Source: Patescibacteria group bacterium (GTDB lineage: Bacteria; Patescibacteriota; Patescibacteriia; JBHPGJ01). From it: 61,516 nt of DNA. Location of the stretch: contig JBHPGJ010000008.1 in NCBI GenBank assembly GCA_042570545.1, positions 1-61,516 of the forward strand, in the 5' to 3' direction. A program made the position numbers and the translations under genes. This document shows, piece by piece, positions 25,985-26,256 of the stretch. Within the stretch, counting starts at the first letter, position 1. Each line of letters begins with the position of its first letter. The notes below the pieces were generated by a model, which did not search any database, was not told where the DNA came from, and saw only the letters and a list, made by a program, of their open reading frames with translations.

Positions 25985-26140
25985 AAAAAACTACTCAGCG
26001 CTACTCTGTGGACAAGAGAACTATTCAAAGGAAGAAGGAAGGTAAACCTGCCTTATCCTCTAAAGGGCTCCCATGCTTGTCGTGTCCACAGAATACCAGT
26101 GAGTAGTAGTTTCAAATAAATATATCCAGTTTTTATGGAA
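25985..26140 (-). ncRNA. Unidentified rod-like RNA candidate 3
   Basis: Minus-strand promoter TTGACA-17-TAATCT with TG extension (26175-26147). Long interrupted hairpin CUACUCA/UGAGUAG, AUUCUGUGGACA/UGUCCACAGAGU, ending in U6. Confidence 0.5.
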
Positions 26141-26256
26141 CAAAAAAGATTATCATATAATAAAGATTATGTCAATAGTATCAGCAAATACAAGAGAAAA
26201 ATCTTGAAAACAAGCAATAATAATGCTAATATTTGCTCACTTAGTAAGGATTGTTT

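Follow-up and report, generated by a model that had tools for sequence, protein, structure and literature searches.

The minus strand of the window, as we call the whole 61,516-nt stretch of DNA analyzed here, very probably carries a real, conserved and structured non-coding RNA gene. The gene is a new family, spread across the class to which the source organism belongs and matching no known RNA family. Its product forms an interrupted rod in which the most conserved part is a run of 10 unpaired bases, CGACAAGCAU, and on balance we expect this RNA to act by docking a conserved cell protein. We infer its expression, its processing and the protein nature of its partner.

The rod spans 118 nt (25990-26107) and is followed by a run of six U residues. 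It sits in a spacer of 695 nt that separates a VanW-like gene from an M17 aminopeptidase gene (26251-27750, plus strand), beyond which lies ruvB, and its direction opposes that of both flanking genes. The 191-nt stretch that contains it has a minimum free energy of −59.4 kcal/mol, compared with −37.1 ± 4.0 for 200 dinucleotide shuffles (z = −5.5; 0/200 as good), and the plus strand of the same stretch folds more weakly, at −49.2. A preliminary description of this DNA had recognized an interrupted rod hairpin of about 115 nt on the minus strand, and every helix that it named is present in the sequence and reads on that strand. Its CUACUCA/UGAGUAG pairing and its 12-bp helix both lie inside P1 (a helix of 12-13 bp, UUCUGUGGACA/UGUCCACAGAG), GAGC/GUUC and UUUAGA/UUUGAA fall in P2 (GGGAGC/GUUCUC, UUUAGAGG/CCUUUGAA), the GAGG/CUUC helix is borne out, and the apex that it gave as AGG-UUUA-CCU corresponds to P3 (AAGG-C-AGG/CCU-U-CCUU) with UUUA at 26043-26046. 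The terminal U6 that it reported is the run at 25985-25990. Two features went unremarked: a TTGACA −35 box begins at 26175, the coordinate from which it started the RNA, and nothing in the whole is better conserved than the 10 unpaired bases. The parts of the gene are collected in Table 1.

Table 1 Features of the rod RNA gene and its conserved neighbor (positions in the window).
Feature	Position	Strand	Basis
−35 box TTGACA	26170-26175	−	Read directly; (C)TTGACA at the matching place in nearly all 33 homologous loci inspected
Extended −10 box TG-A-TAATCT, 17 nt past the −35 box	26147-26155 (TG 26154-26155, TAATCT 26147-26152)	−	Read directly
5′ leader, about 33 nt	26108-26141	−	Start at about 26141 deduced from promoter geometry (−10 position)
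P1 5′ strand, 24 pairs; inner UCUGUGGACA corresponds to the family CUGCAG-N-CA box	26083-26107	−	Column mapping
Asymmetric internal loop CGACAAGCAU, 10 nt, nearly invariant, presumed docking site	26073-26082	−	About 125 class genomes
P2 5′ strand GGGAGCCCUUUAGAGG	26057-26072	−	12 of 16 P2 pairs compensatory
P3 and apex AUAAGGCAGG-UUUA-CCUUCCUU	26035-26056	−	Family-conserved GG...CU pairs; pyrimidine-pyrimidine mismatch below them
P2 3′ strand, ending in conserved UCUCU and one unpaired U (26015) facing the 10-nt loop	26015-26034	−	
P1 3′ strand UGUCCACAGAGUAGCGCUGAGUAG and U6 run; base of the rod doubles as intrinsic terminator	25985-26014	−	
VanW-like gene (PG_binding_4 + VanW), conserved convergent neighbor; context rather than demonstrated partner	23714-25555	+	

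Transcription of the minus strand would begin at a strong sigma-70-type promoter, in which the TTGACA box is followed at 17 nt by a TG-extended −10 box. The promoters of nearly all of the 33 homologous loci inspected have a −10 box of the form TGnTAnnnT, likewise 17 nt past the −35 box (TGATAATAT, TGATAAGAT and TGCTAAAAT are examples); because this box is of the extended type, a simple promoter scanner makes no call for the rod. The transcript would consist of a short, variable leader and the rod, stopping at its own base helix and U-run, which gives an RNA of about 157 nt as made with a conserved rod of about 118-128 nt. Among homologues the leader ranges from roughly 10 to 55 nt and lacks sequence conservation, which makes trimming of the mature RNA to the rod possible. 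Most of the homologues at the 33 loci have 4-8 U residues past the helix. The base of P1 with its U6 run has the make-up of an intrinsic terminator, a G+C-rich stem followed directly by U residues; that description fits the gene's 3′ end alone; neither the promoter nor the conserved loop belongs to such a terminator.

At the level of blastn, copies of the rod 71-74% identical to that of the window occur in two other families of the class, and an alignment of three sequences based on MAFFT has compensatory changes in 23 of 53 pairs. A covariance model (R1) built from these three sequences was searched against 151 genomes sampled evenly over the class and matches in 131 of them (about 87%), representing some 90 families, nearly always as one full-length copy of about 128 nt. 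In 31 sequences, standard pairs fill 92.6% of cells; shifting the partners by 1-3 columns lowers this to 42-53%. Both sides have changed in 41 of the 48 pairs, and column shuffling failed to match the observed values in all 500 trials. The 31-sequence alignment was fitted to the model, which favors the structure somewhat; the MAFFT-based result together with the slid controls indicates that the covariation signal is real. RNAalifold on its own returns this rod too, and classes 40 of its 47 pairs as compensatory. The G-U pairs, which the preliminary description took to favor the minus strand, do so throughout the family: 31 homologues hold 189 G-U or U-G pairs against 36 A-C or C-A, which means that selection acts on the minus-strand RNA. 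Two rod copies are seen in three class genomes, adjoining in G062 (L051) and G105 (L040) and about 90 nt apart in G044 (L043); one copy in G105 has the variant loop CAAGUAUAGGGG.

Sequence is fixed in three places only, namely the internal loop with its flanks, a CUGCAG box in P1 and the GG/CU pairs near the tip. Over about 125 class genomes the loop reads C-G-A-(C, rarely A or U)-(A, rarely G)-A-G-C-(A, rarely G)-U and is near-invariant while its surroundings vary. It is flanked by CA/UG below and GGGG/UCUC above, so that CGACAAGCAU is followed by GGGG and lies opposite UCUUG. P1 (26083-26107 paired with 25990-26014) carries compensatory changes in 23 of its 24 pairs and is free in sequence apart from its inner CUGCAG-N-CA/UG-N-CUGCAG box, which in the window reads CUGUGGACA/UGUCCACAG. 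At the start of P2, pair 42:137 is G-C in 30 of 31 sequences and pair 43:136 is G-U in all 31. Similarly, in P3 pair 75:103 is G-C in 31/31 and pair 74:104 is G-U in 26/31, often with a pyrimidine-pyrimidine mismatch beneath these GG/CU pairs, and the apical loop varies in both length (4-6 nt) and sequence (UUUA, UCCG, UUCG and others). Because the helices are kept by compensatory changes, only their shape appears to matter. Free helices combined with a near-invariant, one-sided loop would be the pattern expected of a sequence-specific binding site displayed on a rigid rod. A base-pairing seed would likewise show an invariant single-stranded loop, which counts against protein docking.

The loop and the 3′ box served as a pattern to scan one genome per GTDB species, and at least 120 contigs were returned. 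The exact loop pattern is thereby found in at least 120 further species, titled Candidatus Uhrbacteria, Magasanikbacteria, Komeilibacteria, Kerfeldbacteria, Buchananbacteria and Falkowbacteria or "Patescibacteria/Parcubacteria group". We take the six named groups to belong to the GTDB class ABY1. About half of the rod-bearing contigs among the matches listed (L065-L144) are third-party metagenome assemblies titled "uncultured Gammaproteobacteria bacterium", evidently a placeholder or mislabel. Outside the class, a broadened model (R3) matches 15 of about 144 genomes of the phylum, in nine families, which brings the total for the phylum sample to 22 of 151 genomes with the RNA; searching 28 VanW loci from other families without filters adds only one clear and one weak match. 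In copies outside the class, a CUGUAG box and the GG/CU tip are retained, as is, often, the VanW/RuvB neighborhood. The internal loop of these copies differs in sequence, and in some of them 3-5 bases are unpaired on its 3′ side too. Such relatives indicate that the rod family is older than the class and that its loop evolves by lineage; since the shape is kept and the loop is not, the partner surface must have been altered, unless the loop matters less than it appears to. Some of them (L061 in G173, L367/L368 in f127 and L373-L375 in f111) have an enlarged tip, with insertions of 18-33 nt, as well as different internal loops.

In the class, the RNA usually lies just past the stop codon of the VanW-like gene. 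A convergent VanW gene is adjacent at 19 of 28 class loci, and VanW is present at 97 of 120 pattern-scan loci among the matches listed. On the other flank clpP is common, the alternatives being ruvB, a NIF3 gene, nusB-nudix or an nrnA-like gene, and hsp20 lies beyond VanW both in the class loci and in the window. Between convergent genes, the rod RNA occurs in either orientation. We considered and rejected a functional coupling to VanW: the protein is encoded in 115 of 151 phylum genomes, compared with 22 of 151 for the RNA, and two RNA-bearing genomes apparently lack it, so we take the linkage to reflect inherited gene order and not as functional evidence. No candidate partner protein was found among the conserved neighbors (VanW, Hsp20, ClpP, RuvB, the NrnA-like DHH protein, SMC and RNase III), which are ordinary housekeeping genes with no specific link to RNA binding.

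Comparison with the 4227 models of Rfam 15 gives no match to the rod other than a miRNA model hit by chance, whose 20.9 bits fall far short of its gathering score of 86. The SRP and 6S models, which the preliminary description had proposed as a check, do not match the rod even at E ≤ 10. For the SRP models RF00169 and RF01854, nothing is found in the region at E ≤ 10 under permissive filters, and there is no match anywhere in the source genome; positive controls were recovered in 12-13 of 14 reference genomes. The source genome has no tmRNA by ARAGORN or Rfam RF00023 (only tRNAs score, below the cut-off). It does contain 23S rRNA at 43290-46381 of contig C1, RNase P RNA motifs at about 35629-36028 of contig C11, and a true 5S rRNA beside the 23S at 42976-43091 of C1. 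To our knowledge, 5S rRNA is the only universal RNA of about 120 nt; the rod is not 5S (RF00001), given the separate true gene and the lack of a branch point in the rod versus the three-way junction of 5S. A search of the accessible literature for the motif and for 6S or other non-coding RNAs in these bacteria found nothing.

We considered which known roles the rod might fill. In its size and hairpin form it resembles 4.5S, or small SRP, RNA (RF00169): both are single hairpins of about 115-130 nt with a 5′-sided asymmetric loop among the internal loops and a 5′-leader precursor (putative for the rod), the rod is single copy and nearly universal in the class, and a canonical SRP RNA was not found in the source genome. 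It is nevertheless very improbable that the rod is a divergent or relic SRP RNA, and the SRP-like scaffold envisaged in the preliminary description fails on both the RNA and the protein side. That description had itself noted the absence of the SRP CAGG/GNRA/AGCA motif, and indeed the rod has no GNRA tetraloop at its tip, no AGCA 3′ of the apical loop, no symmetric AGCA loop and no match to the model, and its conserved loop lies about 25 bp from the tip instead of beside it. On the protein side, neither Ffh nor FtsY is detected in the source genome, which has no Ffh M domain, no SRP54-type GTPase, no TIGR00959 match and, in a six-frame scan, no protein with GxxGxGKTT and DTAGR together; the best tblastn score of E. 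coli Ffh against it is E = 0.84. More broadly, none of 61 phylum genomes yields the SRP54 GTPase domain (PF00448), and E. coli Ffh finds no match in five closed genomes (0/5). A lineage without Ffh or FtsY could not use the rod as an SRP. Loss of ffh and ffs has been reported for Parcubacteria (Nelson & Stegen 2015, PMC4508563), and many CPR bacteria lack SRP subunits (PMC8080830); the absence of SRP described here agrees with PMC4508563 and extends over a wide sample of the whole phylum. The most specific candidate function is instead that of a very divergent 6S-type RNA of the class, an open-promoter mimic that would sequester the sigma-70 RNA polymerase holoenzyme. In such a model the 10-nt loop would play the template strand and P1 the downstream duplex, P2-P3 would reach to −35, and a product RNA made from the loop is predicted to start AUGCUUGUCG. 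6S RNA (ssrS; RF00013) is likewise a single-copy housekeeping RNA with a strong promoter and a long, irregular rod; it is best conserved in an internal unpaired region with G-C pairs on either side, and its family is defined by shape, not sequence. By our own reasoning, the 24 pairs of P1 and the roughly 24-28 of P2 plus P3 fit the distances from the open region to the downstream DNA and to −35, and the unpaired 3′ bases of some relatives in other classes point the same way. No RF00013 match occurs in the source genome or in 81 class genomes, so the usual 6S RNA is undetected, which is weak evidence because the control is positive in only 5-7 of 14 reference genomes. The structure argues against this identity: the loop opposes 10 nt to 1 nt and is not the two-sided bubble that defines 6S, and the conserved rod measures 128 nt versus 150-200 nt in known 6S RNAs, so that on loop and length alike the rod fails the structural definition of 6S. 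We regard the 6S-type role, with its putative binding of RNA polymerase, as doubtful.

Three further explanations were considered. As the only long single-stranded invariant segment, the loop could be the seed of a trans-acting antisense small RNA whose target would be a conserved site in mRNA, CCAUGCUUGUCG, that might span a start codon (Met-Leu-Val); this complement contains AUG, which makes a base-pairing seed possible, and one 14-nt duplex with G-U pairs does cover a plausible start codon (contig C9:12045 of the source genome). Yet that genome has no perfect loop complement of at least 12 nt outside the gene, its matches of 10-11 nt occur at chance frequency with none at a convincing start site, and 202 duplexes of at least 10 nt appear once G-U pairs are allowed, so the match on C9 is expected noise. 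A conserved rod of 48 pairs is also far more structure than a seed needs, and we judge the antisense role unlikely. P1, as a nearly perfect 24-bp duplex, exceeds the roughly 20 bp of double-stranded RNA that RNase III acts on, and the rod might chiefly be an RNase III substrate, as the preliminary description suggested, or a decoy, in which a cut in P1 would free the inner hairpin or the rod would titrate the enzyme. The variable leader suggests trimming, in several genomes only the inner part of the rod (model positions 22-107) is conserved, and rnc lies about 1.3 kb away at 12 of 120 loci among the matches listed. RNase III recognizes the shape of double-stranded RNA, however, and needs no invariant 10-nt loop, and the proximity of rnc goes with the common rnc-smc gene order; a primary role of this kind seems quite unlikely. 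Finally, the preliminary description had allowed that the rod is only a degenerate repeat or terminator. Its position between convergent VanW and ClpP-type genes in many genomes, in either orientation and often flanked by an A-run and a U-run, would suit a long bidirectional terminator, a DNA palindrome or a degenerate mobile repeat. Against this stand its copy number (one, for a 161-nt query against the 1,005,480-base, 27-contig source genome, which is 97% complete), which leaves no repeat family, and its own consensus promoter and terminator signals. Termination requires neither an invariant 10-nt loop nor a 48-pair architecture, and the VanW gene of the window has its own terminator (25729-25756). 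That G-U pairs exceed A-C pairs 5:1 reflects selection on one RNA strand, and this asymmetry and the promoter contradict a terminator or repeat alone, which we consider barely credible.

Several narrower ideas were tried and set aside. No dispersed repeat family that includes the rod exists within the window, and a miniature inverted-repeat or other mobile element is rejected by the single copy in the 1.0-Mb genome and the usual one copy per class genome. Pairing of the loop with rRNA is also rejected: the only 11-nt match near 23S lies 600 nt upstream, is apparently coding and has the same sense as the loop, and so could not pair with it. Reading frames from the AUG of the loop span 4 to 24 codons and are not conserved, which discounts a small peptide. 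The loop, as CACGACAAGCAUGG, resembles the linker between h44 and h45 of the 16S rRNA of the source organism, UCGUAACAAGGCAUGCG, and in one family U is replaced by C at the matching place in both. In about 95 further RNA copies and 80 16S 3′ ends, 16S CAC accompanies RNA CAU in five genomes, and 16S CAG, CAA or UAG accompanies RNA CAU in six. These eleven genomes, in which 16S differs without a change in the RNA, indicate that the first coincidence was chance and that mimicry of the linker, judged by co-variation, is not supported. Helix 45 of 16S in the class starts GGCAU, GGCAC or GGCAG, has the loop GCGGAAGC instead of the usual GGUAACCGUAGGGGAACC (contig C7:460-515 in the source genome; 67 class genomes), and has a stem that covaries freely among families.

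The protein decoy or scaffold suggested in the preliminary description, once stripped of its SRP-like form, stands as our leading, if unproven, reading. In this protein-docking model, the fixed loop, the CUGCAG box and the GG/CU tip pairs would together form the surface that one conserved partner contacts; this partner, most probably a protein, would be placed some 2.5 helical turns away from the tip. The RNA would work in trans, as a scaffold, a decoy or a subunit of a housekeeping RNA-protein complex. We tentatively propose a more specific version, in which the rod is the RNA subunit of a housekeeping complex peculiar to ultra-small bacteria, one that may have arisen or been repurposed where SRP, 6S and tmRNA are undetected and that could take over part of their job, such as control of RNA polymerase or handling of the ribosome and nascent chain, through a partner that reads CGACAAGCAU.

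Precedents for RNAs of this form exist. Bacterial Y RNAs, bound by Ro/Rsr proteins (Deinococcus; Salmonella YrlA), are about 100 nt long, have a long stem formed by their paired ends with a conserved protein-binding irregularity, carry a U-run and act as protein tethers, and the rod is like them in these respects. Y RNAs also possess a tRNA-like or multi-branched upper domain and are encoded beside rsr; by contrast, no rsr neighbor occurs at the rod loci inspected. The orphan RNA classes among the Weinberg/Breaker motifs (raiA, OLE, lysM-TM7) were, like the rod, found purely from intergenic covariation, are restricted to lineages and have an open biochemical role, but the rod differs in being nearly universal in its class and a free-standing gene rather than a cis-regulatory leader.

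Patescibacteria make up a large share of bacterial diversity, and their genomes of about 1 Mb leave little room for spare genes. With one copy kept in about 87% of the class genomes sampled, the rod very likely has a basic role. It occurs where three small RNAs that are usually universal (SRP RNA, 6S RNA and tmRNA) are missing or undetectable, and identifying its partner would give access to a new part of core cell biology just as these organisms are coming into culture. For annotation, the covariance model supplies a new marker RNA of the class.

Other small-RNA candidates lie near the rod. A G+C-rich, 6S-like candidate of about 155 nt at 21590-21775 (minus strand) has a fold just moderately stronger than its shuffles (z = −2.6) and blastn matches in 0 of 60 class genomes. 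In the same spacer as the rod, a perfect TTGACA-16-TATAAT promoter (25772-25799, plus strand) and a terminator (25940-25967) delimit a candidate small RNA at 25772-25976, whose terminator is faced by the 3′ end of the rod RNA. A second plus-strand promoter (25559-25586), together with the terminator at 25729-25756, marks another candidate at 25559-25764. The 695-nt spacer may therefore be packed with up to three small-RNA genes.
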